Assembly (NCBI GenBank): GCA_965644265.1
Contig: OZ286467.1
Location: 98,766,001 to 98,830,000 of the forward strand
DNA length: 64,000 nt
Source: Glycera tridactyla
Taxonomy: Eukaryota
Direction: 5' to 3'
The stretch's first letter is position 1; every line of letters starts with the position of its first letter. The translations under genes and the position numbers were made by a program. A model generated the notes under the pieces. The model had not been told where the DNA came from, made no database searches, and saw only the letters and a program-made list of their open reading frames with translations. Positions 11,685-40,844 of the stretch are shown here, one piece after another.

Positions 11685-11700
11685 CGTGTGTGATGTGTGT
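11622..11700. repeat. (TG)n microsatellite; similar tracts at about 12440-12550, 17770-17800, 52359-52402 and 61020-61050
   Basis: Direct inspection. Confidence 0.95.
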
Positions 11701-14953: not shown

Positions 14954-17767
14954 CCCTACCTTGCATAAAATGCCAGTTTACAGAATGAGGGATTGAGGGA
15001 GTACGTCACAGAATAGAATCAGATCCTAGGTACCTGTCCGACAAAGTGGCAATATTCACAATTTTTCCATCATTAAGAACATCATAAAATGTCTTGTTGT
15101 CCAACTCCTTGATTTCCCACCAAAATATCTTTGTTGATTTCAAAATGAACCACATGGACTCCTTTGGGATCATGAGCAAGTGAGTTTATATCGAATTGTT
15201 CTGTATTATAAAGGTGACTGGGACCATATCATTACTGATGAATTGGTATTCATAAGTTCCTGAGATATCGTACAGCACTGATAGGATATACAAGAGCCGT
15301 GTGATACCAGGTTTCAATAGGGGACTGCCTCCAAAGTCTCGAATCTTGTTGAATAGACGGTAGATGCACTCAAATCATCTTGCCCCGTCTCTCCACCTGC
15401 CTCGCAATCCGAAAATATTGCTTCATCTATATAGGGGGGGGGGGGGGGGGAGCACTGTTATTGTATTCATAGACACATTACTATCAGTGTGACTTACTGA
15501 AAGCCCAGATACACTGCCCACACATAACATACTTGTGATATTGAAGCAAGGGTAGATGTAGAATGATTAGAAAAGATTACATGTATATCCCGATTGTAGT
15601 CCTATCATGCAAATATGAGGGAACTATTTTGTATGAGCAGTGACACTATTCTGAAGAGCACTGATGTTTAGTTCAAAAACGAGGTGATCAGTGAGTTGAA
15701 TTGCTTGTTTGGGTTTATCGTCCTTCCAACCTTCTTGGGCTTAATGCCTCGGGAATTCCCATCATCGATACACACCTTGTGAGGAATAACGTCGATCATC
15801 CACTGACGTGGGTTCTTGTTATGGACTTCAGTCGATCCGCAAGAATCCCAAATTGAAGTAATATTATGCAGGAGATATTCAATCCAGGTATGAAAGTCTG
15901 AGGAATGCCATCCGCACACTAGGAATGAGGTGGAATCACATGCAAAGAATATGTTACATAACCAGGTGAGCAGGAACGAAAGAAGAGCGAAGTCACATAT
16001 CTTCCGGTCACCTGAAGCTAGTCAAGTGAAGATGCCAAGACATTATCATTTAGCAAGTTTGCTAAGATGATTGTTTCTTTGAGTTTAATGTCTTTTCAAC
16101 CCTCTTGGGTAATATCAGACTGAAAAAAGTGAAACTGCTGAAGAGGAACCACTGCTGGTGACATTCCTCTACTCTTTGGGAAAGGCAGCAGTGGTTCTTT
16201 CATGTGCATACGGGAATAGACTCCCATACACACAGGTGGCCTTTGGTATTCAAGTCGGCATGCACTGAATCCACTAAGATGGATGAGACCCAATACTGTC
16301 AGCTGGATGCAGAGAACACCAATGCATACAAGCAAATCTGAAATCTGTCCCATTCCACGCTGCTTTGCAATTGCTTGACATACAATGGGCTCTCACCGCG
16401 GGTACATCACAATATTTGAAGGAGTTTCACTGTCACTCTGCACTGAGAGCATCCAACAGAACCTACCTTGCATGTTTGTTTGGGTTTAACGTCCTTTCAA
16501 CCACATTGGGTTATATCGGACTGAAAATGCTGAAGAAGGCCACCCTACTCATTGCGATCAGTGGTTCATTGCGATCAGTGGTCAGCATGCACTGGGTTCC
16601 CTACCTTGCATAAAACGCCGATGTACAGAATGAGAGATTGAGAAAGTACGTCACAGAATAAAATCAAATCCTATGCACCAATCCGACAAAGTGGTGTCAT
16701 TGTATCAATGGGTTCATGCCGAACAATCTAATAGCAGACATCAACATATCGGCCCTTGACTCCTCACAAAACATCACAAAAGATCTTGTCATCCAAGTCC
16801 TTGATTTCGCACAAAACTATCTTTGTCGATTTCAAGATGAACCACATGAACTCCTTTGGGATCAGGAGCAAGTGAGTTTATATTTAATTGATCTGAATGA
16901 TAAAGGTGACTGGGACCATATCATGATGAATTGGTATTCATACGTTCAGATCTGATGCATGATGTCCATGCAGGTCGGTCATTAAGCAATATTGCAATCA
17001 ATCAATTGCATAAGATCAATGTTACAAAAATAATACCCGGGAAGCATCAGTCATGTAGCAAAAGGTACAGCAATCCAGAACATTTTGTTACACTGTTACC
17101 AATGTATGAATCACACATACCAGTGGAAAACACTTCAGAATGACAGATTACACTGGAGCTGATATCCAAGACATCCAAATTAGTAACAAGGTCCCATCGA
17201 ATATGATGCAGAAATATATATGCATGTCATATAATTAAGGCCAAATTGACGCGATACAACTGAGTGCTATAAACGAATTTGTACCAACCAGTGGGTGGTA
17301 CAGATGACTGTATCAAACGCTCGCCTCAAGCCGGAACTACTTTTTCCGTCTTAAATTTTTATTTTTGCATCACACCACAGCTCATGCCTTTCATCTGCTA
17401 CTTGTTTACAGACAGAATGGATTTAGGGGCGAGGGCCTGTGTGGCAGTACCAGGGGATTAAGCCTGACCGTGAATTGCTGTTTGTACGTACTGTATAAGG
17501 ATCCCTACTGTACATAGCATTGCCTGTTGAATGGATAGTATCAGCTAATGTCACCCTTTGGTAGTTTAGGCGTGTTTTAATTAATTTAGTATTTATGCAA
17601 GGAATTTAGATATCAGGATGGAGGTTTGGGTGGGGGGACAAATGCGGGTGTGTACCTGTCGATGAGTGGGGGTGTGGGAGTGAGTGTGTGGATGAATGAT
17701 ATGTGCACATATGTGAGTGTAGGTGTGGGGGGGGGGACAAATGTGTGTGTGTACGTGTCCATGAGTG

Positions 17768-17803
<36 letters not shown>

Positions 17804-17958
17804 AATGGTATGTGCATGTATGTGAGTGTGACTGAGGAGAGCAGAGGCAGGAGACCAAGGGGGGCATTGTAGCAGTAATGACATTGGTAATGATAAGTTA
17901 TAAAACACTCCTAAGTGAACAATTAATATAATATGCAGGATAAGAGTGTGGCTACTAG

Positions 17959-20452
17959 TGTGGCGAGCCAGCTGTCGAGCTGTCACTTGTCAAACTTGCA
18001 CACGCTCGCGTGTTTCGCCGCCGATTGTTCTGATAGCAACTGTCACGCAAATAAACGTTTGTTTACGCGCATTTTGTGCTTAAAACACGCAGAAATCGTT
18101 GTTTTCAAGGTAAGCTTACCTAAATTGACCTGTTAGTATGTATTTCTTGCTAAAATAGCGGATTTCGGTGGTTTATGCTGCTGGAATCGCCATTGTTTAT
18201 ATCCGAGGTTGCACCCCGCATAATTATTTTGCCGGCGTCCTATTGGTCAATATTTGTATTAGCTGCTGAGCAGGCTTGCTTGACAACGCAAGCCGCGCTC
18301 GAACGTCGACTTAAGTTGTCACTCCGACTGAAGTGTCGACTCAAGCACCGACTCAAGTGACGACTTAAGTTGCCACTCATAGCCTATAAAGACCCAATAT
18401 GTCAAAGTGAGCAACCAGTCTCGGTTCAGCCCTGTTAGAGGCAACACTTAAGCAATATTATAGCTCCTCAAATCTGGACATTGGCCTGCCATAGGCACTT
18501 AATTGAATCAGTCCCCAGTGGTCCCTGTCAATTGAGACCACCTGTCAAGGTTGACAGCAGTTGATTTCATCAGTAATAACATCCCTAGTGCAAGTGTTTA
18601 GACCCTGAACTTTGCCAACTTAACTTGTGTCTCCACCTTTGGACTTAGTAAATACTATGTGGTAGCAAGGCTCCTGCTGTGTGATTTAATGGGCTGTGCA
18701 GAAGTATGGCCAGCCGTTTGGCAGTAAATATTTAGTTATCATTTGAGGTTGAGACCTCTAACTTGCGGGCCACCTCAAGTTTCAAACTGTTGACATGGCG
18801 TATTTCGGATCTGCTTATCACCCATGCTCCTAAATTGCCACCGGTTTACTTAAGCCAGCCTTTTAGTATTCTAGCTGTGTGATATAATCCTCCATAGTTG
18901 TCATAGAAGGCTCTTAATTATACATCATTTAAGTGAGGTGCCACTGGCATCTATTTACATATTTAAAGATAATGAACTAGTAGTGAGTGATACAATTTGT
19001 ATGCCTTGTAATGAACTGTATTATTCTGTCTCTTTTGCAAATATATGTGGGAAGGGAATCGGTATAGTCTAGTACCTTTGTGGTCCTAGAGATTCAGTCA
19101 GTTACAAGCATATAGTCATACCACTGTGGGTCTTGTCCCTTCGGTGAATCACCCTGTTGTCTTTTCCTCTGCCGTATATATTCTTGTCAGCATCAGCTCT
19201 CTTAAATCACTGCCATGAGTCTGTGTGAGTGTGTGAAGTAGTGTTAGGTGTGTGCGCCGACCTTGTGGTCGCACAGTGTATAGGAGAAGTGTGTAGTTTA
19301 GTTGCAGCTGTAGGTGTGTGTGTGTGTGCCGACCGCGTGGTTGCACTGTGTTTTAGTGTGTAGAGTGTAGTTGTAGTCGTAGTGTGGGTGCGCCGACTTG
19401 TGGTCGCACTGTGTTAGAGTGTAGTTGTAGTCGTAGTGTGGGTGCGCCGACTTGTGGTCGCACTGTGTCATAGTGTGTAGAGTGTAGTAGTCATAGTGTG
19501 TGTGCGCCGACGTGTGGTCGCACTGTCATAGGCAAGAGTGTAGAACAGAAGTGCTTGCTAGACTTAGAGGGGTGTAGTAGTTGAGAGTGGGGTTAGACGG
19601 AGAGAGTTAGTAGACAGGTGTAGTAGCTAATCAGGGGCTCAGTTCCATGTACAGTCTTGGGAAGTTGTGATTTTGGTAGAGATGGGTCAAGAGTAGAGTG
19701 GGACGGGCGAATCAGGGGCTCAAAGCTGTGCATGGGCTGAGGTAGGTATTTGGGAATCTTTGGGGTTTCTGTCCTTCCGTACAGGCTGGGGAGTCGTGAT
19801 CCAAAGTAGAGAGAGAAAGACAGGTTAATCAGGGGCTCAGTTTGTACGGGGGTCAGATAGTATAATTGTTAGGGAGGTCTAGTAACAAGCGTGACACTGT
19901 GTGAGCGAGTTGGGTGTGGTAGAGTGGACGAGTGTGGCGTGAGTTGTATGTAAGTGTTGGTTGGCGTATTGTTTGTAAAGCTGATGCGCTGTCTTGGTGG
20001 TTTTGTCGTGTAAATATCTCTTGTCTGTCGGTGACTGATAATAAATGCAAACGTTAACATAGTTTGTATGCTGTGTCGAACTCCTTTATTCAGCAAGGTT
20101 GGGTAGTGTCAAGGGAGGTTGTCGGACGTTTCAGTCTCGTTTTCAGGTTGATATCGCCTGTCTTGTGTCAGGTTTGACGTTCGAGAGTGATTGGTACTCC
20201 AGTTGTGACCGGCCCGTGGGGTCCCGAGCGTGTGGGATCTGGTGAAGGTGCAGCATTGAGTGCCCTTGCTCTTGTGTGAGACTCCGTCTGGCAGTCTGAG
20301 TGGGACTTTGTGTTCGGTGGAACAACGCTACCCGGCTTGTGGGCCTGAGACCAGGTCCCGCAAACTAGATCCACGAGACGGGCTTTGTCTTAGAAGAGGG
20401 CTCAGCCCCGAAAGACACAAATAGTAGACACCCCCTCCCCTTGCGCGCTACA
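17959..20452 (+). repeat. 5' LTR (2494 bp)
   Basis: Direct repeat of 30900-33439, roughly 98-99% identical by eye; TG...CA ends; TATAAA at about 18385, AATAAA at about 20040; internal tandem array of 5 units. Confidence 0.96.
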
Positions 20453-20465: not shown

Positions 20466-20484
20466 TGGTGGCAGCGGTGGGATT
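20466..20484 (+). promoter_or_regulatory. Primer binding site complementary to the tRNA-Leu 3' end
   Basis: TGGTGGCAGCGGTGGGATT is the reverse complement of AATCCCACCGCTGCCACCA (tRNA-Leu AAG/TAG-type 3' end, from recall); starts 13 nt after the LTR's terminal CA. Confidence 0.88.
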
Positions 20485-20740: not shown

Positions 20741-22950
20741 ATGGCTACCAGTCATGATCCCAGGGCTGAACCAAGGCCCCCTACTTCCTCGCCATCTGTA
20801 AATAATGGGTCCATGGGTGGAGGAGTGGGCCACATGAACAAAGCAGCACCAATCAATCACCTGCCAGCGATGGCAGAAGTTCTGGAGCCTTCACAGCGCC
20901 AATGCATGATGACCAGGAGGTTTTGTTCCGTCGCGATGGAGAGGGAGACAATCCTGAGGCTAGTGGTCATAGCCATGGTGGGGATTCAGCCAGGAATGAG
21001 TCCCGGAGCTCATCCCAGTTTGGGGGTGCTCCTGTTGAAGGTGGTGGAAGTCTGCACTTAAGATTTCATGAAAGGTTCCCTGCAAGAGGAACAGGGTGGC
21101 CTGATAAGCTACCAGAGACATCTTCTCCTAGAAGACCATGTCATCCTCCTGCAAGAGAAACAGGGTGGTCTGATAGGCTACCGGAAACTAGGAGTATGTC
21201 TCCCCCAAGAAGACCATATCGTCCCCCTCCAAGCAGCTTTAATCCAGGAAGTGACCGGCTGCGCTCCAGAGGCGATCAGCCATGTCAACCTCCGTTTCAA
21301 ATGATGCCGTATGGTCCACGGGGCCAGAGCAATATCGATCATTCAAATCGTCCTGTTGGCAATGACATCTACCGAGAAGCTGGACGACGAGATCACCACA
21401 GCTGGGGAATGGCTCATCAGTACACAGAGCGACATTCGCCATTGGGATACGACCAGCAGCCAATGCAGCGTCCCAATCACGACAGCCGAGGTCAACAAAT
21501 GCCCTATTACCAATCAAGGAATGGATGGTCAGATCCCTGTGTTGGCAGTGGCCGTGACTTCAGGGAAGGTGTTCCCCGACGTGAGGCTCCGCAAGGAACT
21601 CAGTCTTGGCAAGGGCATTATGGTGAAGCCTTTCATCGAGAATCGTACCCTGCTCAGTCAACTGCTGCGTTAGGGAGTCGGAATCAGCCATCATATGATT
21701 ATCCTAGGTTCATGTCTCATGATGTGGTGGATGGCTCAAGTCGAGACTCTGGAGATGCCAGATATGGGCGAAGGCTCGACTATGGCATCCCCGCTATGGA
21801 TCGAGGGAACTCCAATCACCTTGCACGGAGCAGAGACAACATTGACCAGCAAGAAGAGTGCATGAGTCGCTATGAAGGACGTCGGGAAGGCCATGTTTCC
21901 GAGTGTCGAAATGGGCCGTGGGATAGACCCGACCATGCCATGTCAACGTCGAGAAGGATGCCGAATCCGAATCCGAGGTGGTCTGTGGGTCGAAGTGATA
22001 ACCGTCCGTCGGGACACAAGATAAAACGTCCAATGCCATATGATGGACGCAGCAGTTGGGAGGACTATCTGGTCCAGTTCGAGATGTTGGCCGACATCAA
22101 CCAGTGGGATTCTGCGACGAAAGCTACAAGCCTCAAGGCACCTGCAACCGGAGTTCTCACAGACCTGAACAGAGAACAGAGACGTGACTACGAGTCATTG
22201 GTATCAGCTTTGACAGCTCGCTTCGAACCGTCAAATACAGCTGAGATTTTCCGTGCCAAGCTGAAAGGTCGTTTGAGAGGGAAGATGGAGCCTCTAACGG
22301 AGTTGGCTCAGAATATTAGACACCTAACACGTAAAGCATACCCCAAGGTGGATGTCCATGTCCGAGAATGTCTTTCTCTTGAGAGATTCATCGAGTCATT
22401 GAATGACTCAGAGCTTGAATGGTTCGTATTCCAGGCCAAACCGGAGAGCATGGAAAAGGCTGTGGAGACTGCTCTCGAATTTGAGGCCTTCAAGCAAGGA
22501 AGAAGACGTCGAGTTGGTGGGGACAAGCAGTTTGTCCGGATGAGTTGTCCAGAGGGTGGCATACCTGCTCAGCACCAGCCCTCAAGTCATCGTGATGATG
22601 GTCATTTTGGCCATGATGTTGAGTATGGAAGCCACGATCGGGTCGACGCAGATGACCGAGTTGCCAGAATGAATGGTGGAAATGTTCAAAGTCATCACTC
22701 AAGGAACCACCATGATGGGCTACATAAGGGAGCGTCTAATTCTCCGCCAAGGTGTCACAGATGTAACGAGGTTGGGCATTTCATCAGAGACTGCCCAGTG
22801 AAGGCACCTTGTTTTGCCTGCGGTGAGACAGGACACTGGAAGGGGAATTGTCCTCGAAGGTACAACACTGGAGGATATATGGGCCAGGGGCAGGCAAACT
22901 CCAACCAAGGAGCCAGGCAAGCCAGTCCAGGCCAGGTGTCGGGAAACTAA
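20741..22950 (+). CDS. gag: Gypsy gag: long low-complexity N-terminus, capsid-like domain, two CCHC zinc knuckles; probable frameshift near 20900
   Basis: ORF 20902-22950 has PMPYDGRSSWEDYLVQFE (capsid start), CHRCNEVGHFIRDC and CFACGETGHWKGNC; a likely ATG at 20741 (MATSHDPRAEP) is in an adjacent frame. Confidence 0.9.
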
Positions 22951-23003
22951 ATGTGGCTGAGTCTAAGGGCCATGACTCAGCAGAATCGAATGAATGTCGG
23001 CCC
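22941..23003 (+). promoter_or_regulatory. -1 programmed ribosomal frameshift signal (G GGA AAC plus hairpin/pseudoknot)
   Basis: Heptamer GGGAAAC 22941-22947 in the gag frame right before TAA; stem GCTGAGTC (22956-63)/GACTCAGC (22974-81); loop GGGCC (22967-71) complements GGCCC (22999-23003); pol is in the -1 frame. Confidence 0.85.
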
Positions 23004-26000
23004 AAAGAACACAGCCCTAAAAGGATTGGATGTAGTTTGTATATAAAGGCAGCTATCTACGTCGCTAAGGTGGATTGTCTGATCGATACTGGAGCGACAA
23101 TAAGTGTCATCCACCCGAGTTACTTTCGAGCCCTCACTCAGGGACAGAAAATCTCAGTTCAACCTTATACCGGCAACCTTCGAATGGCAGATGGAGGACT
23201 TGTTGCACCAGTTGGACAAGCCGTCCTCGGCCTGCTGTTTTCAGATTCACAATACGTCAAACACAACTTTGTGATAGCGGATCTAGAGGGACCTGTCGTT
23301 TTGGGACTTGATTTCCTACAGCAACATCGTGGTATCGTTGATGCACAGAAGAATGAGCTTTCCTTGTACGGAGTGGCCCATAAGTGCTACAACGCAGCTG
23401 AAGGAACTTTTGTATACCACATCATGCTTGGTGAGGATCTGACTATACAACCAGGGGTTGAAATGATACTTCCTGGAATGTTTGATAACAAGCCAAACTT
23501 TGCAGTCGGAATAGTGGAGCCCTATGAGAAGTTTGTATCGAGGAACGAACTACTTGTAGCGAAGGCAGTTGTGGACTCCACGAGTGACGAAATTCCAGCT
23601 CGAGTCACGAATATCTCCGATTCTGAATATACCTTGTACAAGGGAATGTGCATAGCCACATGTGAAGCCGTGGTCGATGTTACATCGAAAAATGGGGATC
23701 AGGAGGTTGTTGGTCACGTGACTACGATTGGAGAAGCAGATGAACTTCCGCAACACCTCTGTGCCTTGTATGAAGACTGTGTCTCCTACTTGAAAGATGA
23801 AGAGGATAAAGCCGACGTGAAGTGCCTTTTGAAGAAGTATGCCAATACTTTCGCTAAGTCCAAGGAAGATCTGGGTTGGACAACGGTGGTGAAGCTTACC
23901 ATAGATACTGGTGATGCTTGTCCGATCAAGCAGCGACCTAAAAGAGTCCCAATGGCGCTTAGAGATGAAGCTCAGGCAGAAGTCGACAGTATGTTGAAAC
24001 AGCATGTCATTCAGCCTTCGAGTAGTCCTTGGGCGTCTCCCATCGTTCTAGTCCGAAAGAAGGATCAATCTATACGATACTGTATAGATTACAGACAATT
24101 GAACGACATAACTCTGAAAGACTCTTATCCCATCCCACGGATGGATACAACTCTAGAAGCTCTCCAAGGCTCAACACTATTCTCAACTTTAGACTTGGCC
24201 AGTGGCTATTGGCAAGTCGAGATGGATCCTGATGATAAGCCCAGACTGCGTTTGTAACGGAGGGTGGCCTGTATGAGTTTAACGTTATGCCGTTTGGTTT
24301 GTCAAACGCGCCAGCAACATTTGAAAGGCTCATGGAGAGAGTCCTCTCTGGTCTACATTGGAAGACATGTCTTCTCTACATTGATGACATAATCGTGTTC
24401 AGCTCCTTGATGGAATCGCATCTCTCTAGGTTGGAGGAAGTTCTTCAAAGAGTCTCCGCCGCTGGTCTGAAGGTGTCTCCTAAGAAATGTTCCTGGTTCA
24501 GGTCAAGCGTGAAATTTCTTGGACATATTGTATCCAACAAAGGAGTAGAAACAGACCCAGAGAAAGTGGCTGCAATCACTGATTGGCCCACACCATGTAA
24601 AGTCAAGGACGTGAGAGCATTTCTTGGTTTCTGTTCTTATTATCGACGGTTCATAAGAGGTTTCGCAAATATTGCGAGGCCGTTGCATAAGTTGACCGAG
24701 AAAGATACGCCATTCAATTGGTCGATGGATTGTGAAAAAGCCTTCAATGAACTGAAAGGGATGTTCGTGAGTACCCCGATATTGACATATCCATCTCCTT
24801 CGGACCCTTTCATCCTTGATACAGACGCCAGTGCATTTGGAATTGGAGGTGTTCTTTCACAAATTCAAGATGAACGAGAATGCTTGATCGCTTGCTACAG
24901 CAAAATATCATCAAAGACTGAACAGCAGTATTGTGTTACCCGTCGGGAGTTACTCGCCATTGTAATGAGTCTTAAACATTACCACCATTATCTGTATGGG
25001 CGACATTTCACCACTCGCACCGATCATGGAGCGTTGAGATGGCTGCTTGGATTCAAAAATCCGGAAGGTCAAATGGCAAGATGGCTAGAGGTTATTGGCA
25101 CATATGATATGGAGATTCAACATCGTGCTGGCAAGCAACACGGAAACGCTGATGGAATGTCTCGCCGTCCCTGCAGTCCTTGCAAGCATTGTGAGCAGAA
25201 GGAAGACCAAGACACATCTACAGCTGAGTATGTGCATAGAGTATGCGCCATTCAAGGACCATCCAATAGTTCGGACAGTACACCTGAGATAGCTCCTTGG
25301 TTGCAGGCTTGGTCACAAGCTGATCTCATCAGATGGCAGAGCGAGGATCCGGCTGTTAACGAAGTCATACAATGGAAGAATGTTGGGACAAAGCCAAAAT
25401 GGGAAGTGATCAAGAATGAGTCATCTGACATCAAGATCTACTGGACCATGTGGCCGATACTTTCTGTTCAAGATGACATTTTGTACAAGCAGTTCACTCA
25501 GGATGGTCAGAAGTCGAACAGCTTTCAGTTGATTTTGCCACCTTTTCTTTGTAAGCAAGTGATGCTCCATTTGCATAGCATGCGGATAGCTGGTCATTTC
25601 GGAGAGAAACGAACTTTAGCAAGTTTTTGTTTGTTTTGTTGGGGGTTTAACGTCATGTCAGCTCCATTTGGGCTATATTGTGACGCCCATGCAATGGGCA
25701 TGGGTGGGATCATAAATATTCGTCGCCGATTCTGGTGGCCTCATATGAAGCAGGACGTCATAAGATGGTGCAAGATATGTGATCCATGCCAGAAGCGCAA
25801 AGCACATCCAGGTGCCAAGCATGCTCTTCTACAGCAAGATCCAGTTGGCTCACTAATGGAAAGAATATCAGTAGACATTCTTAGTTTCTCAGAAGTCACT
25901 GAGAATGGGAACTCTTGTGTCCTAGTCATAACCGACAGTTTCTCAAAGTGGACTGAGGCCTTTGCCTTACCCAACCATCAAGCCATAACGGTTGCAGATG

Positions 26001-26845
26001 TTCTAGTGACAAAGGTTTTCCTGAAGTTAGGTGTGCCGAGAGTTATACACACAGACCAAGGTCCTGAATTCCAGTCGCAATTGTTGGAAGGTGTCTGCAA
26101 GTTATTGGAGGTTCAGAAGACTCGAACTACACCATATCACCCTCAGTCGGATGGCCAAGTTGAACGGTTCAACCGTACACTGATCGCTATGTTGTCAAAA
26201 CTCTGTGCAGAGAACAAGCAAGATTGGGATGACCATCTCCCGTTCGTCATGTGCGCGTATAAGTCTACCGCTAACAAATCTACTGGTTGCAGTCCTAACC
26301 TGCTGATGCTGGGAAGAGAGACCATCCTTCCTATAGATCTCATGTACCCGCATCCATCCGATGATCAACATGCTTGCCCCAATGAGTATGTAGAATGGGT
26401 TCGACAGGCAATGCGGGAGAATTTTGAGAGGGCAAGAAGTCATCTTGGTGAGGCAGCCCAACGACAGAAGCGCTACTATGACAAACGGGCAATGACAAGA
26501 AGTTTTCAACCAGGAGATTGGGTGCTTCGTTATTACCCTCCAGACAAAAACAAGAGCAAATTGAATTTTCTCTACACTGGTCCATTTTTAGTCACTAAGA
26601 AAATCAGCGAGGTAAATTATGAAATCCAGAAGACGGAGCGATCATCCAAATTCGTGGTCCATGTACACCATCTGAAGGAGTACGAATGGGATGATACTCC
26701 GCCAAGCTGGTTACCAACGTATTCTGCACCTGAAGAGTCCTCCGATGAAACCAGTGCTCTCCCTGTTTCTGATGAAGAGCCTGTCCTCTCTGGCCATCGA
26801 ACACATAAGTTGCCTTCTCGGTTCCAGGATTTTGTCCTGTATTAG
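22948..26845 (+). CDS. pol: Gypsy pol (protease, RT, RNase H, integrase) with a 1-bp frameshift near 24243 and a 93-bp in-frame insertion
   Basis: LIDTGAT (protease); LDLASGYWQV, MPFGLSNAPATF, YIDD (RT); LDTDAS (RNase H); H..H..C..C, TDQGPEF, GQVERFNRTL, YTGPF (integrase). Restoring one base gives the canonical KTAFVTEGGLYEFNVMPFGL. Confidence 0.95.
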
Positions 26846-26977
26846 TTCTTGTTGTGAAGAGAACTCAAGGTCTCCTTGTTGTGAAGGGAACTCAAGGTCA
26901 TCAAGGTTCCGGGGTAGGGTGCATCAGAGACAGAAGTGATGTGCAGCCATCACTAAATGTGCTTATTCTTTTGCAGG

Positions 26978-28226
26978 ATGTCGCATAACCAGTCAGTCAA
27001 ATGCTATGACTGTGGCATGTGGGTCGCGAACAGGAAGGCGTTGAGCCGTCATAAAACAGACCATCACGAAGAGAAAATCGGCTGCCCGATGCCCAATTGT
27101 TATTTCTCCTACGCCCCGGGACGCAACTACAATTTCAAGCGGCATCTTGAGGAAGTTCACGGTGCGCTACCAGGATCGAAGAAACGCTGGCCCTCTTGGA
27201 GTATGACACTGCCCTCCAAGACCTTACCACAATAGACCTGGTGGCCCAGGCATCGCTCTTTGCTGGGATAACTGAAGTCGGTGTGACCCCACAAGTCGTG
27301 CCGACTGCTACGGCGACTGTGGCAGCCTGCCCTGCTACGAGCTCCACGGCTGCCCTGGGATCATCAGGAGGCGCGGAGGACATCATGGCTTCTTGTGTGA
27401 AAGCGCTCCATCATCCGCAAGTCGTGGACTTGGGTATTCCTCCCTGGGAGATGCCATCAGATGATGAGTTTACCCCGTCAGCTGTGAGGTCATTTGAGGT
27501 CAGCGTTCCTGCCCCAGTTTACATCCCGTCGACGCAAGTGGAGGAGTCAGCCGCAGTCAGCCTATCAGCCGAACCCCGTGGCAACCAGTTGAGGTCAGCG
27601 TCCCTGCCCCAGTCAAGATCTCGTCTTCTCGAGAGGAAGAGCTGGCAGCAGTCTGTCCAGCGACCAAACCCCTCACGTGTGATCGGGCATCCAGTCCCAT
27701 CATCTGGGCCGACGAAGATGTAAGACCATCGACCTGCTCCCGCGGATCGAGTCCGATTCCGGAGGAGTTTAACTTGAGGTCTGTGAACCGGACAACCCAA
27801 TTTCTTGTCGACGAAGCCCTCTTGGAGGACAGTGTAGAGGAGACCCTTCCACGTGGGAGAGGAGTGCAACCTCCGGGTGCTCCCACCTACCGCCTGCGAA
27901 ACATCACACTCCCGCCCAAGAAAGGACGCTCCTATGATTATTACCATGACGACGCCCGCATTTTCCTCTGTGGAGCTCCTTCCACCTTCAAGAGCAACCA
28001 TCCGCTGGCTAAAGCCCTCTTGTCGCGGGCCCGGGACGAGTTCATCAAGGATGGGTATGACCGCGTGGTGAAATTGGAGCCAGCTGGCCATTACGTCCTG
28101 CACCGGAAGGAGACTCTCCATCTTCCCGAGAAATCTTATTCGATTGAGGCCACCTGGGTGTCCATGCCAAGTTATTGCGAGCAGCAAAATGCATCTTGCC
28201 AGTGGTTGTCCCCTAAGGCAGACTAG
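26978..28226 (+). CDS. Gypsy accessory ORF3: two C2H2 zinc fingers, S/P/A/E-rich linker, unknown C-terminal domain; two apparent frameshifts
   Basis: CYDC-x12-HKTDH and CPMPNC-x14-HLEEVH; frames 26957, 27196 and 27774 each step -1 and join near 27170 and 27580; acceptor ttattcttttgcag|G ATG at 26976/26977. Confidence 0.7.
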
Positions 28227-29804: not shown

Positions 29805-30022
29805 CATCTTTTGGTCTTTCTGAAGAACCATAGTCCTCAAAATTTCTGTGGCGCCGGAATTAGCGTCCGTATTGATCATCTTTGTCTTTCTGAAGAACCA
29901 TAGTCTTCCAAATTTCTGTGGCGCCAGAATTAGCGTCAGAATTGGTCATCTTTGTCTTTCTGAAGAACCATAGTCTCCCAAATTTCTGTGGCACTGGAAT
30001 TAGTGTCAGAATTGATCATCTT
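29805..30022 (+). repeat. 70-bp tandem repeat, 3 copies, in the Gypsy 3' untranslated region
   Basis: Unit catctttgtctttctgaagaaccatagtctcccaaatttctgtggcgccggaattagcgtcagaattgat; period 70. Confidence 0.9.
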
Positions 30023-30886
30023 GGTAACATGGTTTGGCCAGTTGAACTTTCATGTTGTATTCTTTGATCTTTCGGCCTTGTCCAAAAATTTGAAAACGCA
30101 AATTTATTAATGACAGGGTATCACGATGTGATCACTGGTGGAGTGAGTCCGTATCAGACCATAATGTACATATCAAAGCCATTTTCCGTCCAGAGTGTGA
30201 TGCCAAATCAAATGTGTTCAATGACTAGTCGAAAGTGCATGCAATAATCAAATGTTTCTTGGTGATTCGGTTTTAATGAATGCATGGTGTCTCAAACCTC
30301 GTTTTGAGATCTAATGTCATTGTGTGTTGTGGGTGTGAGTATTTAATGTATAGCTCAAACCGCCTTTGTAACTCTGCTCACGTTGATATGTGTATGGCAG
30401 GAACTGGGTCTTCGGTTATCCCTTAATGTATTGCGGCAATGCCTGATCTGACCAGATCACGCCGGGTTTACATCTTTTTAGGGATTTCCTATTATATGTG
30501 CAGTTTTAGGGCCTGTGTTATGAACTTGTTGTGGCAATGCACCTTGTTCCGCGGTGTCGGGTTGTATTTGGTTTAGGGTTTGACCTGTCTGGATTTAAGA
30601 GCAGATAATTGATATATGTATGGTAGTCGTGTTGTGTGGTAGTAGATGGTAATGTTAGGGTATCATTTTTGAACGAACAGTGCACTAGAGTTTCACTTTC
30701 GAATATTCCAAATTTGATAAGATAAAATATGAGTCCTTCCGGACAGTTTATAGTTCTCTACCTCAGTTGAGTTTGGGAGTACTGCAGTATGTAGTCTGGC
30801 CATCCTCTGGGTGCACTACTCGGCTGAGTTAGAAACAATGCTTATTTTACGTGACAGTTGAGTAGTTCGAGGACAAACTAATGTGT

Positions 30887-30899
30887 AAGAAGGGGGTGG
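30887..30899 (+). promoter_or_regulatory. Polypurine tract
   Basis: AAGAAGGGGGTGG directly before the TG of the 3' LTR. Confidence 0.8.
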
Positions 30900-33439
30900 T
30901 GTGGCGAGCCGGCTGTCGAGCTGTCACTTGTCAAACTTGCACACGCTCGCGTGTTTCGCCGCCGATTGTTCCGATAGCAACTGTCACGCAAATAAACGTT
31001 TGTTTACGCGCATTTTGTGCTTAAAACACGCAGAAATCGTTGTTTTCAAGGTAAGCTTACCTAAATTGACCTGTTAGTATGTATTTCTTGCTAAAATAGC
31101 GGATTTCGGTGGTTTATGCTGCTGGAATCGCCATTGTTTATATCCGAGGTTGCACCCCACATAATTATTTTGCCGGCGTCCTATTGGTCAATATTTGTAT
31201 TAGCTGCTGAGCACGCTTGCTTGACAACGCAAGCTGCGCTCGAGCGTCGACTTAAGTTGTCACTCCGACTGAAGTGTCGACTCAAGCGCCGACTCAAGTG
31301 ACGACTTGAGTTGCCACTCATAGCCTATAAAGACCCAATATGTCAAAGTGAGCAACCAGTCTTGGTTCAGCCCTGTTAGAGGCAACACTTAAGCAATATT
31401 ATAGCTCCTCAAATCTGGACATTGGCCTGCCATAGGCACTTAATTGAATCAGTCCCCAGTGGTCCCTGTCAAATGAGACCACCTGTCAAGGTTGACAGCA
31501 GTTGATTTCATCAGTAATAACATCCCTAGTGCAAGTGTTTAGACCCTGAACTTTGCCAACTTAACTTGTGTCTCCACCTTTGGACTTAGTAAATACTATG
31601 TGGTAGCATGGCTCCTGCTGTGTGATTTAATGGGCTGTGCAGAAGTATGGCCAGCCGTTTGGCAGTAAATATTTAGTTATCATTTGAGGTTGGGGCCTCT
31701 AACTTGCGGGCCACCTCAAGTTTCAAACTGTTGACATGGCGTATTTCGGATCTGCTTATCACCCATGCTCTTAAATTGCCACCGGTTTACTTAAGCCAGC
31801 CTTTTAGTATTCTAGCTGTGTGATATAATCCTCCATAGTTGTCATAGAAGGCTCTTAATTATACATCATTCAAGTGAGGTGCCACTGGCATCTATTTACA
31901 TATTTGAAGATAATGAACTAGTAGTGAGTGATACAATTTGTATGCCTTGTAATGAACTGTATTATTCTGTCTCTTTTGCAAATATATGTGGGAAGGGAAT
32001 CGGTATAGTCTAGTACCTTTGTGGTCCTAGAGATTCAGTCAGTTACAAGCATATAGTCATACCACTGTGGGTCTTGTCCCTTCGGTGAATCACCCTGTTG
32101 TCTTTTCCTCTGCCGTATATATTCTTGTCAGCATCAGCTCTCTTAAATCACTGTCATGAGTCTGTGTGAGTGTGTGAAGTAGTGTTAGGTGTGTGCGCCG
32201 ACCTTGTGGTCGCACAGTGTATAGGAGAAGTGTGTAGTTTAGTTGCAGCTGTAGGTGTGTGTGTGTGCCGACCGCGTGGTTGCACTGTGTTTTAGTGTGT
32301 AGTGTAGTTGTAGTCGTAGTGTGGGTGCGCCGACTCGTGGTCGCACTGTGTTAGAGTTTAGTTGTAGTCGTAGTGTGGGTGCGCCGACTTGTGGTCGCAC
32401 TGTGTTAGAGTGTAGTTGTAGTCGTAGTGTGCGTGCGCCGACTTGTGGTCGCACTGTGTCATAGTGTGTAGAGTGTAGTAGTCATAGTGTGTGTGCGCCG
32501 ACGTGTGGTCGCACTGTCATAGGCAAGAGTGTAGAAAAGTAGTGCTTGCTAGACTTAGAGGGGTGTAGTAGTTGAGAGTGGGGTTAGACGGAGAGAGTTA
32601 GTAGACAGGTGTAGTAGCTAATCAGGGGCTCAGTTCCATGTACAGTCTTGGGAAGTTGTGATTTTGGTAGAGATGGGTCAAGAGTAGAGTGGGACGGGCG
32701 AATCAGGGGCTCAAAGCTGTGCATGGGCTGAGGTAGGTATTTGGGAATCTTTGGGGTTTCTGTCCTTCCGTACAGGCTGGGAAGTCGTGATCCAAAGTAG
32801 AGAGAGAAAGACAGGTTAATCAGGGGCTCAGTTGTACAGGGGTCAGGGAGTATAATTGTTAGGGAGGTCTAGTAGCAAGCGTGACACTGTGTGAGCGAGT
32901 TGGGTGTGGTAGAGTGGACGAGTGTGGCGTGAGTTGTATGTAAGTGTTGGTTGGCGTATTGTTTGTAAAGCTGATGCGCTGTCTTGGTGGTTTTGTCGTG
33001 TAAATATCTCTTGTCTGTCGGTGACTGATAATAAATGCAAATGTTAACATAGTTTGTATGCTGTGTCGAACTCCTTTATTCAGCAAGGTTGGGTAGTGTC
33101 AAGGGAGGTTATCGGACGTTTCAGTCTCGTTTTCAGGTTGATATCGCCTGTCTTGTGTCAGATTTGACGTTCGAGAGTGATTGGTACTCCAGTTGTGACC
33201 GGCCCGTGGGGTCCCGAGCGTGTGGGATCTGGTGAAGGTGCAGCATTGAGTGCCCTTGCTCTTGTGTGAGACTCCGTCTGGCAGTCTGAGTGGGACTTTG
33301 TGTTCGGTGGAACGACGCTACCCGGCTTGTGGGCCTGAGACCAGGTCCCGCAAACTAGATCCACAAGACGGGCTTTGTCTTAGAAGAGGGCTCAGCCCTG
33401 AAGGACACAAATAGTAGACACCCCCCCTTGCGCGCTACA
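30900..33439 (+). repeat. 3' LTR (2540 bp)
   Basis: Direct repeat of the 5' LTR; internal array has 6 units instead of 5; followed by the CTAG TSD. Confidence 0.96.
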
Positions 33440-33772
33440 CTAGGACATAATGTGTGGGTGTCATCTGTGTGTGTGTGTATGTGTATACGTATGGGTGTGG
33501 ATATGTGTGGGTGTGTTGAAGGGGTGGGAAGTATATATGTATGTGGGGAAGGGGTGTGACAAGTGGCGAGATGGGGTGGGAGTCCTTATAAGTAGTATTG
33601 GCGATGGTCTATTATGATAAGTGCAGTACTGTGTGAGGATGTTGTTTTTGACAACCTTCCATCTTTTGCAGATTTCAGGCTTGCGACATCAATTTCAACA
33701 CTCACTTTGTTCTCAATCTTGACCTTGACCATTATACATTGACCTTGAATTTGACCCTGGATATAGATTAGG

Positions 33773-35060
33773 ATGAGCGGATACAGGAAACCATTTGACA
33801 GGGAGAGGGGGAGGAGGAACGTGTTGGAGATGAGGGAGGAGGCTTGTGTGAGTGGGAGGAGGCGAGTGAGGAGAGACGACTAAGTGAGGAGGTGTGGAGG
33901 GATTGGACAGATGGGAGGAGGAGCTGAGAAAGAGAGGGCGTTAGAGGAGAGGGAGAGAGGAGTAGGAGGAGCATGGGTGGCAGGAGGGCAAAACGAGGAA
34001 GGGGGTAATCCGGTGGAGAGAGGGAGGGGAGGTGGAGAGTTCCCAGAGGAGGGATGGGGAGGTAGAGAGTCATTGGAGTTTGTAGGAAGGGAGACAAGAG
34101 GCCGAGAGGAGAGAGTGAGGCGAGAGAGTTGAGGCGTGCGGAGGAGAAGAGACAAATGAGGGAAGCCAGGGAGCAGAGGAGAGAGTGGGAGATGAGGGAC
34201 CTGAGACACGCGGAGGAGGAGAGAAAGAGGTGGGAAGCGAGTGTTGAGAGGAGAGAGATGAGGCATGCGGAGGAAAAAAGCGAGAGGAGAGGAGATAGCA
34301 AGCGGAGGAGGAAGCGAGAGAGGAGGGGAGAGAGAGGGAGGTGAGAGAACTGAGCCAAGCGGAGGAAGAGGTGAGATTAGAAGAGGAGAGGCTGATGAAG
34401 GAGGCAGAGCAGAGAAAGGTGGTCAGGGACAGGGAGGTGGAGCTGGGGAGACGGAGGGGAGATATCAGGTGGTTGAGGGAAATGGAGAGGTGTGGTAGCA
34501 TAGAGAGGATGAGGAGACAGGTAAGTGAGGATGGGGGGGGGGGAATGAAGCAGTGGAGGCTAGGAGGGATGTAGGAAGGGATCAGGAGGAGAGGAGGGGG
34601 GTCAGTGTTGAGGGTGGAAGGGTGGGTTCATACGCAGAAGTTGTGAGGGTGGTGGTGAGGGAGGGACATCCGTTATGGGTGGGGAGAGAAGTTCAGGTGG
34701 TGAGAGGATGGCAGAGGAGAGAGTGCGGGTGGGGGTTCTTGAGGCAGTGAGACAGAGAGTAGGGTGGGAAAGGAAGTTTTGTTTGTTTGAGTTTTACGTC
34801 ATTTGAACCTGCTTGGGTTATATCGCACTGAATGGGACAGGAAGTTCAAAGAGGCGCTATGGAACAGCAAAGGGATTGTGTGGGTTGACAGGGAAGAGGA
34901 CAAGTATTGGGGAAGGGGAAGAATTGGACGGGGAAGGAATGAACTGGGCAAAATCCTGATGGAGGTGAGGCACGATGTAAGGAGGGATATAGTTGGGGAA
35001 GGCCGAGAGGAGTCGCGGGGTAGGGGGCATGTGGTAGGAGGGGGATGCAGGAGGGGAGTA
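33773..35060 (+). pseudogene. Degenerate purine-rich ORF: E/R-rich coiled coil followed by a partial NADAR (YbiA/DUF1768)-like domain
   Basis: After removing a retroposon insertion and one frameshift: GREVQVVRGWAEERVRVGVLEAVRQRVGWDRKFKEALWNSKGIVWVDREEDKYWGRGRIGRGRNELGKILMEVRHDV, matching the NADAR C-terminal D..WG.G..G.G.N.LGkiLMevR signature. Confidence 0.65.
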
Positions 35061-35143
35061 ACGATGGAATGAAGGGGGGTCGTTGCGATGAATAGAGAGG
35101 AGGGTGGGCGTGGGCGAGGAACATGAAGAAATGGAGACAGGAC

Positions 35144-36790
35144 GTTTGTTTGTTTGTTTGAGTTTAACGTCACTTGAACCCGCTTGGGTTATATCGGACT
35201 GAAAAACTGAAAATGCTGAAGAAAAGAGTCACTGCCTGCCGGGGGCCGTCCCTACTCTTTGCGAAAGACAGCAGTGGATCTTTAACGTGCTTAAAGGAAA
35301 AGGCTCCTAAATAAACGGCCGGCCTTTGATATCCCAGTTGCCACGCACTGGGTTAGCATGCACACGATTTATATTTGTCTAAATATTCCCAATTCGTGCA
35401 ATTGAACAAATATGTCTGTTGGATCGACTTTCATGAAAAGTTGTGTCATATTTTCTACAGTGTAATACTTTACTCTAGTTTGCGATAGTTTTCTATAGTC
35501 GAGCAATGAATGTTTGACAGTGAGATGGCATCCGCATGCAAAGCAATCAGGTTTGTTTTTGTTTGTTTGTTTTAGTTTAACGTCACTCAAACCCGCTTGG
35601 GTTATATCGGACTGAAAAACTGAAAATGCTGAAGAAAAAGAGTCACTGCATGCCGGGGGCCGTCCCTACTCTTTGCGAAAGACAGCAGTGGATCTTTAAC
35701 GAGCGTAAAGGAAAAGGCTCCTAAATACACGGCCGGCCTTTGATATCCCAGTCGGCATGCACTGGGTTTAGGATTGCCTTGTTTTTTCAGAAGGTGTGAG
35801 ATATGTATGTCCTATCCTCAAACGGGAAAGTACTATCTCCTCTCTTCTATTCATAGTTCTCGCAGGGAATGTGTCCTCAAGTTTTGGTCTGATGTGATTC
35901 AATTTATTTCGCTTTTTGGTTCCCCATTCATTCTGCCAGAGTTGGTCAATATGGAGCTTTATCCTTGGTTTGAAGTCAGAATAATGGATTTCCATCTCAG
36001 TGACTGGCAAACCTATAGCCCTTTTGGCCTCTTTATCGGCTGCCTCATTTCCAGGAATTCCTATATGGCTTGGAATCCAGCCAGTCTAACAGTCTTTTGA
36101 TGATCTTTGATTATTTGATACTCTTGCAAGATTTGCAAGAGTATACAGTTCCTGAGATTTCCCTGCAAGGCCTGCAGAGATGACAGGGAGTCTGTGAAAA
36201 TTATGAACTTTGTTTTTCCGACCTTGATAAGTATTTGAAAACCAGTAGTAAGGCCCTCAGTTCAGCTGAAAATACTGTTGATCAATCAGGTAACCTACAG
36301 TAATAAGTTTGTGATTCTGTATGAACAGCTGCACATGCTTTGCTGTCACATTTGGATCCATCTGTGAAGATGGCCTCATGATCACCATAACGTGACCTAA
36401 TCTCTAGGTATCTACTTTTGTATGACACCTTGAGTGTCTGTGAATTTCATAAATTTTCGCCTTCTGTTTGGGATCCAGAAGGAGGAGTCTTGAATGATCC
36501 CACCCATGCCCATTGCATGGGCGTCACAATATAGCCCAGATGGAGCTGACGTGACGTTAAACCCCCAACAAAACAAACAAACAAACAAACAAAAGTATAG
36601 CGATGGGTTGGTGGTCTCCTTTGTGGATGTATTTGTGGAATGTCACAGTCCCAGTCTGCAATCTGAGCAGGATCCATCTGTGGTATTGGGAGTGTGTCAA
36701 AGTCACAACTTCCAAAGTGATTTTCGAATCTCATTCCAAGAGGAGCAATGACGTGGAGATTTTCTTGAAATTCCTATTTATATTTAGGCC
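35144..36790 (-). mobile_element. 5'-truncated I/Nimb-group LINE: RNase H, CCHC C-terminus and 3' UTR; interrupted by two short retroposons
   Basis: Minus-strand AIFTDGSK...TVFSAELRA...IFTDSLSSLQAL...WIPSHIGIPGNEAADKEAK, then WQNEW...RREEIVLSRLRIGHTYLT and PDCFACGCHLTVKH...GIFRQI*; the 3' UTR ends in (CAAA)n. Confidence 0.88.
36421..36595 (+). mobile_element. Family B short retroposon (about 170 bp, hairpin-rich); the only plus-strand copy, inserted in the LINE
   Basis: ATGACACCTTGAGTGTC...GACGTTAAACCCCCAACAAAACAAAC. Minus-strand copies or fragments at about 7770-7930, 10545-10950 (three), 25623-25715, 37380-37420, 38405-38575 and 42495-42535. Confidence 0.82.
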
Positions 36791-39700
36791 TGAAGACACT
36801 CTCGTGTGTTGGATTCAATGGGTGACTGCCTGCCGGGGGCCGTCCCTACTCTTTGCGAAAGACAGCAGTGGATTTTTAACGTGCGTGAAGGAAAAGGCTC
36901 CTAAATACACGGCCGACCTTTGATATCCCAGTCGGCATTCACTGGTCATTCATGGGGGGATCATTGATATCATGGGGTGGGGCGGGAGTGACTTGACGAT
37001 GGACGAGGAGTGGTACAGGTGGCATTGAGGAGGGTGAAGCCGTGGGGGGTGATTGTGATTGCTGACTACAATTCCTGTCCAGATTGCCTGACTTGGGTTG
37101 GAAATGTTGTGAAACACAGATCCTATACTTGTAGATGTGTGGGGGCGCAAGTCAAGAAACGGAAACAAGAAGCGGACTTGAAACATGTTCTAATGTTACA
37201 TCTGAACAAAAGCAAGTTCAAACAAAAGCAAGCAAGATACTCCATACAGAAGTTTTTGCCAGTAATGATAATGTATGGGACATCGGATATGCAATAAAGA
37301 CGAATGCACGAAACACTTTAAAGCGGGGTAAAAATATAAAATGGGACTTCCATGACTCTTCCTTGGATCCATATGGGAGAAGAAAGTTTATGAAATTCAT
37401 AGACTCTCAAGGTGGCAATTTTTGCATGCTAGACTGCGGATTTGTTATCCATGGTTCCAGAATGGGATTGTCTCTCCCACTTACCACACAATACAGTGAA
37501 ACCCGCAATGAGAGACCCCTTGACGAGTGACCACCTGCAACAGGAGAGCATTTGTATCTAACAATGTCAAATATACCTCTGACAAGTTTTCTTTGTTTGT
37601 TAGAATTTAACGTCACTTCAACCCCCTTGGGTTATATCGGACTGAAAAAACTGAAAATGCTGATTGCCTGACAAGTTGATGTGTGCTGTTAGGTTGTTTG
37701 GCATGAACCCATCGATACGTAAAATCTGATCCTATCCTGTGACATACTTTCTCAATCTCAAGAACCTCTGCTGTCTCTCACAACGAGTAAGGACGGCCCC
37801 TAGCAGCGGTGCCTCTATTCTTCAGCAAAATATAATAGTCTGAGGAATGCCATCCGCACCTTAGGGATCAGGTGGAACTACATGCAAAGAATATGAAGCA
37901 TAACCAGGCATGAACGTGAGCAGGAAAGAAAGAAGAGCGAATCCAGATTTTTTTCGGTCACCTGAAGCTGGTATTGTACCGCCCATACGAAAATATGTTG
38001 CTTAGCAGTTCCTCGCAAGGCTAGTTGCAAGAACATATGAGTCCTATAGTCAAGTGAAGATGCCAAGACATTATCATTCAGCAGGTTTGCTTGGATGATT
38101 GTTTGTTTCTTTGGGTTTAACGTCCTTTCCACCTTCTTGACTTGTACCAGACTGAAAAACTGAAAATAGTGAAGATAAGAGGCACCACTACTGGTGGCAA
38201 TCCTCACTTTCTGTGAAGGGCAGCAGTGGTTCTTTCACATGCATACGGGTATAGACTTCCATACATGAGGCTGGCCATTGGTATCCCAGTTGGCATACAC
38301 TGGATTCACTAAGATGGATCGATGCAGAATACACCAAAGCGTCAGAGCAAATGTGAAATCTGTGCCAATTTTAGCCTGCTTGCAATAGTTTGACATACTT
38401 TGCTTGTTTTTTTGTTTGTTTTGTTGGGGGTTTAACGTCACGTCAGCTCCATCTGGGCTATATTGTGACGCCCATGCAATGGGCATGGGTGGGATCATTC
38501 AAGACTCCTCCTTCTGGATCCCCAACAGCAGGCGAACATTCATGAAATTCACAGACACTCAAGGTGTCATTTCTGTTATTAAAAATGTTGACCGTGGTGT
38601 TACCATGTGAACATATGATTCATTCACATAGCTTCCACTAGGTCAGTTATTTTAGGCCGTTGTGTCAGGCAGCGAACATGGGATCAGTTCACTGGCCTCC
38701 ACTTGGCCGGTACAGTGGGCTCTCAATAGGTGAAGCACAATATTCGAAGGATACAGTTTCACTGCCACTCTGCACTGAGAGTATCCAACAGACCCTACCT
38801 TGCATATTTGTTTGAGTTTAACGTCCTTTCAACCACATTAGGTTATATTGGACAGAAAAATTGAAAATGCTGAAGAGAGGCACCACTGCCTTGGGCTTTC
38901 CCTACTCTTTTTGAAAGACAGCAGCGGTTCTTTTAAGTGCATATAGGAACAAACTTCCATACACATGGCTGGCCTTTGATATCCCAGTCGACATGTACTG
39001 GGTTTCAGATCGATGCAGAATACACAGAAGCGTCAGAGAAAATGTGAAATCTGTACCATTTCACCCTGTGTTGCAATTACTTGACATCCAGTGGGCTCTC
39101 AACAGGTATAACAAAATATTCGAAGGATACAGTTTCACTGTCACTCTGCACTGAGGGTATCCAACAGACCCCACCTTGCATGTTTGTTTGGGTTTAACGT
39201 CCTTTCAACCACATTGGGTTATATCGGACTGAAAATGTTGAAGAAAAGAGGCACTGACTTCATGGGCTGTCCCTACACTTATCGAAAGACAACCGAGGTT
39301 CTATTACGACGTGCATACAGGAACAGACTCCCATACACACGGCCAGCCTTTGATATCCCAGTCGGCATATACTGGGCTCCCTGCCTTGCATAAAACGCAA
39401 CTGTACATAATGAGGGACTGAGAAAGAACGTCACAGAACAGAATCAAATCCTAGGTACCAATCTGACAAAATGGTTTCATTGTATGGGTCCATGCCAAAC
39501 AACCTGATGTCAAAATATCAGGCCCAAAAGAATCTGTGATGGGGACTTCTCTTAACTTCTCATCGATGACACCACATTCATATATTGTAACTTGGCATTA
39601 TTCACAATTTTATAGTCATTATGAATATTGCAAACGGGCTTGTCATCCAAGTTCTTGATTTTGCTCAAAACTATCTCAAGGTGAACCGCATGGATTCCTT

Positions 39701-40835: not shown

Positions 40836-40844
40836 TAAATTGCA

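Follow-up and report, generated by a model that had tools for sequence, protein, structure and literature searches.

The Glycera tridactyla genome contains Gypsy retrotransposons in which a third gene after pol, ORF3, encodes two C2H2 zinc fingers, and short TATA-proximal repeats in their long terminal repeats (LTRs) track the recognition residues of these fingers in sequence, which is the new observation of this study. The element under study lies in a 64,000-nt stretch of DNA (the window; contig OZ286467.1, positions 98,766,001 to 98,830,000) and is a complete Gypsy element with the third gene following pol. On the evidence of the promoter repeats and finger residues, we hold with somewhat better than even confidence that ORF3 is a putative element-encoded transactivator of its own LTR, which would act via the repeats upstream of the TATA box.

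A third gene in a complete Gypsy element

The element was assigned to Ty3/Gypsy by its TG...CA LTR pair, target-site duplication, primer-binding site (PBS) and polypurine tract, together with a CCHC gag and a pol with the domain order PR-RT-RH-IN as identified by Pfam (Table 1). The window copy is decayed, with one frameshift each in gag and pol relative to a sister copy, that of pol being near 24238. Inside pol, a 90-bp host repeat sits at about 25624-25713, and a 72-bp triple repeat was found at 29805-30025 in the 3' non-coding stretch. Elsewhere in the window, some 19 members of a dispersed ~200-bp repeat family are spread over 3885-16542 and 34774-41370, and tandem arrays with units of 28 bp (8754-9650) and 51 bp (39860-40424) are present. 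The same genome also has a large tandem array (L181; G000:C1, about 37.1-37.4 Mb) whose period is 1,871 bp and which contains tRNA-Leu and tRNA-Ala genes; there were 984 pattern matches across the genome.

Table 1. Features of the ORF3-bearing Gypsy element, in coordinates of the window
Feature	Position	Strand	Remarks
Target-site duplication CTAG	17955-17958 and 33440-33443	+	Abuts the outer end of each LTR
5' LTR (TG...CA, 2.5 kb)	17959..20452	+	96.4% identity to 3' LTR (self-comparison)
YY1-like site / CCAAT box	18188-18194 / 18242-18246	+	Same order in A, B, C, D, L101, L103
Seven GACT(C/T/G)A or CACTC repeats, candidate finger sites	18308..18378	+	Directly upstream of TATA
TATA box	18385-18390	+	Same TATA-Inr spacing in A, B, C, D, E
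Inr-like CAGTYYYGGTTCAGC	18415-18430	+	Inr-like motif also in H, L101
Best candidate splice donor, junction 18494/18495	18489..18498	+	Motif common to family B
AATAAA	20040..20045	+	About 410 nt before LTR end
Primer-binding site	20466..20483	+	Matches 3' end of a tRNA-Leu(AAG) gene of the same genome
gag, two CCHC knuckles	20741..22950	+	Pfam; frameshift near 20823 in window copy
pol (PR, RT, RNase H, IN with C-terminal p58/SH3 module)	22827..26845	+	Pfam
Splice-acceptor sequence	26961..26977	+	One base before ORF3 ATG
ORF3	26978..28226	+	Broken in window copy; 469 aa in intact sisters
Two C2H2 zinc fingers	27002..27160	+	Eight Cys/His ligands invariant across seven families
Duplicated linker segment	27496..27613	+	Within acidic, Pro/Ser/Thr-rich region
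Conserved C-terminal domain	27810..28223	+	172 clusters; helix + beta-hairpin in model
Polypurine tract	30885..30899	+	Preceded by 2.7-kb non-coding stretch
3' LTR	30900..33439	+	Pairs with 5' LTR in window self-comparison

The original prediction had described a strong acceptor one base before an ATG, two C2H2 fingers, an internally duplicated linker, a C-terminal domain that could not be named and the absence of a transmembrane segment, and each of these was found. After the pol stop at 26845, a polypyrimidine-CAG ends at 26976, with G at 26977 and the ATG at 26978. Finger 1 (C-x2-C-x12-H-x4-H) corresponds to aa 9-30 and finger 2 (C-x4-C-x14-H-x4-H), which is two residues longer, to aa 36-61; the linker duplicates lie at 27496-27518 and 27591-27613. 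The same prediction went wrong in joining the pieces by two -1 shifts into about 415 aa. Comparison with intact sister copies shows that ORF3 of the window copy has lost 160 bp near 27184/27185 and 1 bp near 27578/27579; both deletions are private to this copy, which rules out programmed or simple -1 shifts. The 415-aa product is thus not the real gene, and the window copy is unable to make the full ORF3 protein.

Six sister copies are 96-97% identical and ~160 bases longer within ORF3, and in each of them the frame that begins at the ATG stays open for 469 aa. Their LTR pairs are 99-100% identical in five and 95-99% identical in the sixth, and this near-identity indicates that the ORF3 family was recently active. 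Among the six sisters, 64 synonymous and 30 non-synonymous variants were found in ORF3 (pN/pS 0.15, with 0.20 for the integrase of the same copies), and variants seen in more than one copy comprised 27 synonymous versus 2 non-synonymous changes. By part, pN/pS was 0.11 for the fingers, 0.18 for the linker and 0.11 for the C-terminal domain, and pairwise dN/dS of ORF3 ranged from 0.04 to 0.27. The pN/pS of 0.68 in six copies of family D ORF3 (families are defined below) adds little because the differences are few and mostly private and the copies very young. ORF3 is therefore a functional gene under purifying selection in the sister copies, so that both the intact copies within Gypsy elements and the selection that had been proposed as checks were found, and it is virtually certain that the gene is real and element-borne.

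Like an env gene, ORF3 is located after pol and ahead of the 3' LTR with an acceptor before its start. It has no transmembrane segment (maximal 19-residue hydropathy of 0.73-1.26 in all seven families), neither a membrane anchor nor fusion-protein homology was found, and near-significant Pfam matches were to zinc fingers only. The element is thus Gypsy and ORF3 is not env, which was rejected as a candidate for want of a membrane segment.

ORF3 families, their relatives and splicing signals

Within the genome, 43 matches to the C-terminal domain were found. In 8 of the 10 loci fetched with flanks, ORF3 lies directly after the integrase between LTRs; one of the remaining two is internally deleted and the other a fragment in which fingers, gag and pol are all missing. 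A locus considered as a retro-copied spliced RNA (L061) was rejected as such, since it is a fragment that lacks fingers and shows no PBS in the stretch that was read. Seven families were defined, namely A (the window element), B, C, D, E, H and J, the latter six having 23-40% identity to family A ORF3. The presence of ORF3 after the integrase in seven families rules out a host exon captured by the window copy alone, a possibility against which the original prediction had asked for a check.

All seven families share a layout of two C2H2 fingers, a linker and the unnamed C-terminal domain; every zinc ligand is conserved in them, as are the core of the C-terminal domain and a YHPTP-like motif. 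Position -1 of a finger is a base-contact position in canonical C2H2 fingers, and the arginine at this position of finger 2 is invariant in the seven families. The Pfam family zf-C2H2_4 matched six of the seven (best E 1.7e-4; below the curated cut-off for the member shown). The linker has a net charge of -19 to -46 in six of the seven families and is not acidic in J, and a basic stretch follows the fingers in A, B, C and E.

In a reverse transcriptase (RT) tree holding only elements of the G. tridactyla genome (46 of 48 were kept; L113 and L135 were dropped for lack of a match), the seven families form one clade, with a support of 0.999 without J and 0.938 with J. This clade also includes L101-L104 and a decayed copy, L140; L101 and L102-L104, the nearest relatives, keep the fingers, with all or most of the C-terminal domain absent. 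Families A and B have 84-91% DNA identity in pol, and C and D about 90% in gag-pol, but in both pairs there is little or no alignment of LTR and ORF3, a pattern that is modular exchange. Since pol is shared by A/B and by C/D without LTR and ORF3, the latter two move as a unit, as would be expected from a single template switch. By locus, pol or gag-pol is shared and LTR plus ORF3 is not in L051/L052 versus L141/L133 and in L055/L056 versus L057/L058. Four loci (L053/L054 and L063/L064) are internally deleted with near-identical LTRs, their ORF3 being all or mostly open and gag-pol lost or cut.

We further inspected the slot after pol in 40 Gypsy loci picked across integrase similarity. A C2H2 gene was found in 21 of them (two such genes in 10), an SGNH-like ORF in 11 (7 recognized by eye, 4 assigned from their length and clade; Pfam did not support the label in the two that were scanned) and a TatD-like ORF in three, with nothing clear in the other five. 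Each cargo type follows one RT clade, and LTR length is 450-2,700 bp in finger families and about 200-233 bp in SGNH and TatD families. The clade with two tandem zinc-finger genes (L122-L129, L138 and L139) often has two LTR TATA boxes, and its second finger gene has a different unnamed C-terminal domain, Pfam giving fingers only in L126 and L128. In L114, L116 and L136, and in L109, the finger pair is accompanied by a coiled-coil-like end, or by several TQT-like motifs and a hairpin like that at the end of the ORF3 domain. The SGNH/GDSL-like ORF shows D-G-x-H by eye in L107, L112, L113, L115, L117, L120 and L137 (e.g. L112:4354-5136), and AG directly precedes its ATG in L107, L112, L113 and L115. 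L130-L132 (e.g. L131:4293-6125) have short LTRs and a TatD DNase-like gene after pol with a Cys/His-rich region before it; the gene of L131 matches Pfam PF01026 (E 8.7e-43), and nothing relevant on TatD in Gypsy retrotransposons was found in the literature searched. Three short LTRs of non-finger elements (L158:8538-8737, L168:8231-8437 and L157:5992-6216) have CCGGAAGT sites, which we take to be ETS-like, and a strong donor-like sequence.

Outside this genome, a full HMMER search with the C-terminal domain profile gave 172 clusters at 50% identity, and word-index protein searches gave no matches. Among 150 clusters listed of the 172, 30 have a C2H2-like match and 14 have a pair, and 28 of the 69 proteins of at least 250 aa among those listed start with a finger; many of the listed proteins are finger-less, plausibly because gene callers missed the start. 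Of 20 clusters whose records were looked up, 4 have a species name (Potamilus streckersoni, Owenia fusiformis, Argopecten irradians and Mytilus galloprovincialis), and these homologues are annotated as unnamed, hypothetical or 'C2H2-type'. In one external record (P0175), a Gypsy integrase that is 62% identical to that of the window element and the C-terminal domain occur in a single predicted protein. A metagenome scan gave 91 pattern matches and no confirmed locus, and the atlas neighbours of the ORF3 protein were generic fingers only.

No family beyond the fingers was shared in a Pfam scan of 143 members with the C-terminal domain. An AlphaFold model of this domain consists of a long helix and a hairpin (pLDDT 79.5, pTM 0.56; an earlier model from 8 sequences had a pLDDT of 41.6), and the low pTM may mean that the domain folds as an oligomer. 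Fold searches with this non-compact model gave no match at E<=0.001 in PDB or BFVD, the best VIA Z being 2.3, and sequence searches of PDB gave E>1. TQT is the LC8-binding motif, and was found in 61 of the 150 matches listed (172 in total), family A having no clean TQT.

The message of ORF3 is very probably spliced, judging from the signal before its ATG. By an approximate matrix, the acceptor of the window element ranks first of 755 AGs between the LTRs, and none of 248 other ATGs has an equally good acceptor within 10 nt. AG with a pyrimidine tract occurs 0-8 nt before the ORF3 ATG in all nine families compared; by the same approximate matrix its rank among 234-755 AGs is first in six families and second, third and sixth elsewhere, within the top ~2% in all nine, and 5 of 1,085 other ATGs in these families have an equally good acceptor within 10 nt. 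Because the spacing between acceptor and ATG falls in each of the three phases, the exon upstream is probably non-coding; a coding upstream exon was rejected on this varying phase.

The TATA box and an Inr-like motif 30 nt downstream are conserved though the LTRs are otherwise unalignable, and transcription of the window element likely starts near 18415. Two donors had been proposed in the original prediction. That at 18109/18110 precedes the likely start by about 300 nt and is hence probably not transcribed from the 5' LTR, and that near 19745, located here at 19742, is present in family A as claimed but not matched across families; both were set aside. The best candidate donor has GT in 12 of 12 sister LTRs and GC in both window LTRs, and its motif is shared between A and B although the rest of their LTRs is not alignable. 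A donor conserved across all families was not found, and family C has none scoring at least 4. In A, B, C, D, E and H, the distance from AATAAA to the end of the LTR is 370-600 nt, and the position of AATAAA in the window element suggests that R is long, at about 1.6 kb. Tandem repeats of 54 bp that can form hairpins lie within this putative R (18415-20045 of the window), at about 19320-19526; TAR-like hairpins were rejected as a trait of the families in general, as they occur in A and D only and not in B, C, H or J.

Promoter repeats and the zinc fingers

The families have a common LTR promoter order of YY1-like site, CCAAT box, short repeats, TATA and Inr, the YY1-like site (18188-18194) and the CCAAT box (18242-18246) of the window element being presumed from their consensus. 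The flanking sites are constant between families and the TATA-proximal repeats differ. In the window LTR, the repeat cluster has 42 repeated 5-mer pairs where 14.9 would be expected (p 0.005), and its repeat class is common to B, H and L101, which share finger-2 residues. Families A, B and H, with R at -1, N at 3 and R at 6 of finger 2, have GACTC/GAGT repeats, while C, D and E have GTCGC or GTCAC and J has GCGGG. Two predictions made in advance held: GACTC was expected for L101 from its A-like fingers and TGAGT repeats were found, and GCGAC was expected for L103 from its D-like fingers and GTCGC/GTCAC repeats were found; the motif classes beyond these two were picked after inspection. J and L116 belong to different RT clades and have different C-termini, but share finger residues and both have CGGG three times. 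L123 and L126 have CGGAG twice in the promoter window, and we take their finger residues to read NCG-GA by the finger code. The code fits loosely, an overlapped register being required for A/B/H and C/D/E, in which the second finger is long.

Across 12 families, which are not independent points because ORF3 and U3 are linked, the similarity of finger residues tracks that of the -90..0 window (Mantel rho 0.37, p 0.003; partial on RT, rho 0.31, p 0.011), and the correlation is null in three control windows. Shared ancestry alone could give such a correlation since ORF3 and U3 are physically linked and co-inherited. TATA-proximal repeats exceed shuffles (p<0.05) in 7 of the 12 families and in 1 of 24 downstream control windows; they are not significant in H (0.07), L103 (0.08), J, L116 and L126, and three short LTRs from families whose cargo is not a finger gene have no such cluster. 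The motif of A/B/H is similar to the host AP-1 site, being exact in 2 of 12 windows, with CpG variants in A and B. The idea that ORF3 may be a transactivator gains new support from these repeats tracking the fingers in sequence.

The CpG observed/expected ratio in the first 450 nt is 0.9-1.5 in seven of eight LTRs (one being the short J LTR), and that in the next 750 nt is 0.07-0.38 in seven long LTRs. A sharp step from a CpG-rich U3 to a CpG-poor R, between 17959-18410 and 18410-19160 in the window, was seen in six of the seven long LTRs and is weak in H.

Possible roles of ORF3 and known parallels

If ORF3 is a transactivator, transcription would start from the TATA/Inr of the 5' LTR, and a short non-coding first exon in R would be joined to the acceptor before the ATG. 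The basic stretch after the fingers would direct the protein to the nucleus and the fingers would read the repeats of their own family, with the acidic linker as a putative activation domain and the C-terminal domain, often TQT-ending, aiding oligomerization. The outcome would be a family-specific positive feedback loop, for which basal LTR transcription would supply the first spliced ORF3 message. We would give an even chance to the wider proposal of a 'complex' Gypsy lineage in molluscs and annelids, in which each family would have its own C2H2 factor and co-evolving LTR sites, forming private activation circuits with orthogonal two-finger/target pairs and a new oligomerization domain.

Binding of the same U3 repeats could instead block or reverse silencing as VANC does, with no direct activation. 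The CpG-rich first 450 nt of the LTR with the depleted 750 nt that follow, the CpG within many repeats and the family-specific tandem repeats that VANC targets (PMC5735166) would agree with such a role, which we nevertheless regard as unlikely: the repeats are confined between the CCAAT box and TATA, as expected of an activator, rather than element-wide, those of H and L101 are mostly without CpG, and a catalytic domain is not evident in ORF3. It is decidedly unlikely that ORF3 binds element RNA for unspliced export or read-through of the 5' poly(A) site, as in the case of CERV/Rev. Its position and probable spliced expression are like those of CERV (PMC10309623), strong splice sites create a need for an export factor, and AATAAA lies inside the putative 1.6-kb R, where A and D have hairpin-forming repeats; yet repeats upstream of TATA, outside the 5' transcript, that track the fingers would be left unexplained, the hairpin repeats were not seen in B, C, H or J, and the described domains of CERV are unlike those of ORF3.

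The sign of the effect is a separate matter, on which the covariation is silent, and fingers on promoter repeats could repress in a self-limiting control of copy number, as sites beside TATA could block it. We consider this very unlikely given the acidic linker, the location of the sites upstream of TATA and Inr rather than over them, and the strong purifying selection where LTRs are 99-100% identical. Least likely of all, the repeats might be host sites, e.g. AP-1-like, with ORF3 guiding integration or acting on host genes; the linkage of ORF3 and U3, the AP-1-like motifs of A/B/H and the union of integrase and C-terminal domain in P0175 would be compatible with this, but the YY1-like site and CCAAT box stay constant while the repeat class changes with the fingers, and the motifs of C/D/E, J/L116 and L123/L126 are not AP-1-like.

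By analogy, ORF3 as a transactivator likely works like Tas or VANC without membership of either, and their trait of family-specific repeats in the element's own non-coding DNA is present, being significant in 7 of 12 families. To our knowledge, Tas is not a C2H2 protein. The likeness to Tas/Bel1 of foamy viruses lies in an element-encoded DNA-binding transactivator with U3 elements upstream of the start, but the virus that encodes Tas is a complex retrovirus that has env, and Tas is expressed from an internal promoter (PMC8670036). VANC of Arabidopsis VANDAL and TnpA of Spm are sequence-specific accessory regulators whose target repeats differ between related families; they belong, however, to plant DNA transposons, VANC demethylates across the element (PMC5735166; 10.64898/2026.08.24.746577), and TnpA has helix-turn-helix domains as opposed to the C2H2 fingers of ORF3 (10.64898/2026.08.24.746577).

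Among Gypsy/Ty3 elements, Cer1 of C. elegans encodes CERV, a spliced nuclear regulator of RNA export (PMC10309623). As described there, the 3' ORF encodes the C-terminal half of CERV, which is a larger spliced protein, whereas the ATG of ORF3 follows the acceptor; CERV has H, M and G domains, with a Cys loop and a G-protein-like domain, which by their descriptions set it apart from the C2H2 fingers of ORF3; and no obvious homologue of CERV is noted in that account outside Caenorhabditis, whereas relatives of ORF3 span bivalves and a polychaete. In bdelloid LTR retrotransposons, the env slot holds varied family-specific non-env ORF3s, typically with spliced messages, including GDSL/SGNH esterases as in some Gypsy families of the G. 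tridactyla genome; their cargo comprises enzymes, coiled-coil or transmembrane proteins, and the word 'finger' is absent from the main text (PMC5408684). The Drosophila MDG1 group has accessory ORFs (sORF1/sORF2) in env-less Gypsy elements, which are downstream of pol in some Lepidoptera, but sORF2 is a membrane protein of 63-107 aa for cell-to-cell spread and ORF3 is without a membrane segment (PMC11952523).

The terms 'zinc' and 'ORF' were not found in the accessible text of mollusc and annelid LTR surveys (PMC6238403; PMC8556966), nor 'zinc finger' and 'C2H2' in that of an errantivirus survey (PMC13524379). A description of ORF3 was not found in the literature searched; Repbase, most subscription journals and supplements lay outside it and may hold an annotation. 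Non-env cargo after pol was known already, as were self-activators in foamy viruses and plant DNA transposons, and the well-studied Gypsy accessory regulator so far is CERV alone, which acts on RNA export. If ORF3 is a transactivator as we propose, retrotransposons would be using the C2H2 fold that hosts use for silencing them, which would explain the separate control of many related families in one genome, and the finger/repeat pairs are short and directly testable. Elements of this kind are also the likely origin of many proteins that annotations of bivalve and annelid genomes list among host genes as 'uncharacterised C2H2 proteins'.
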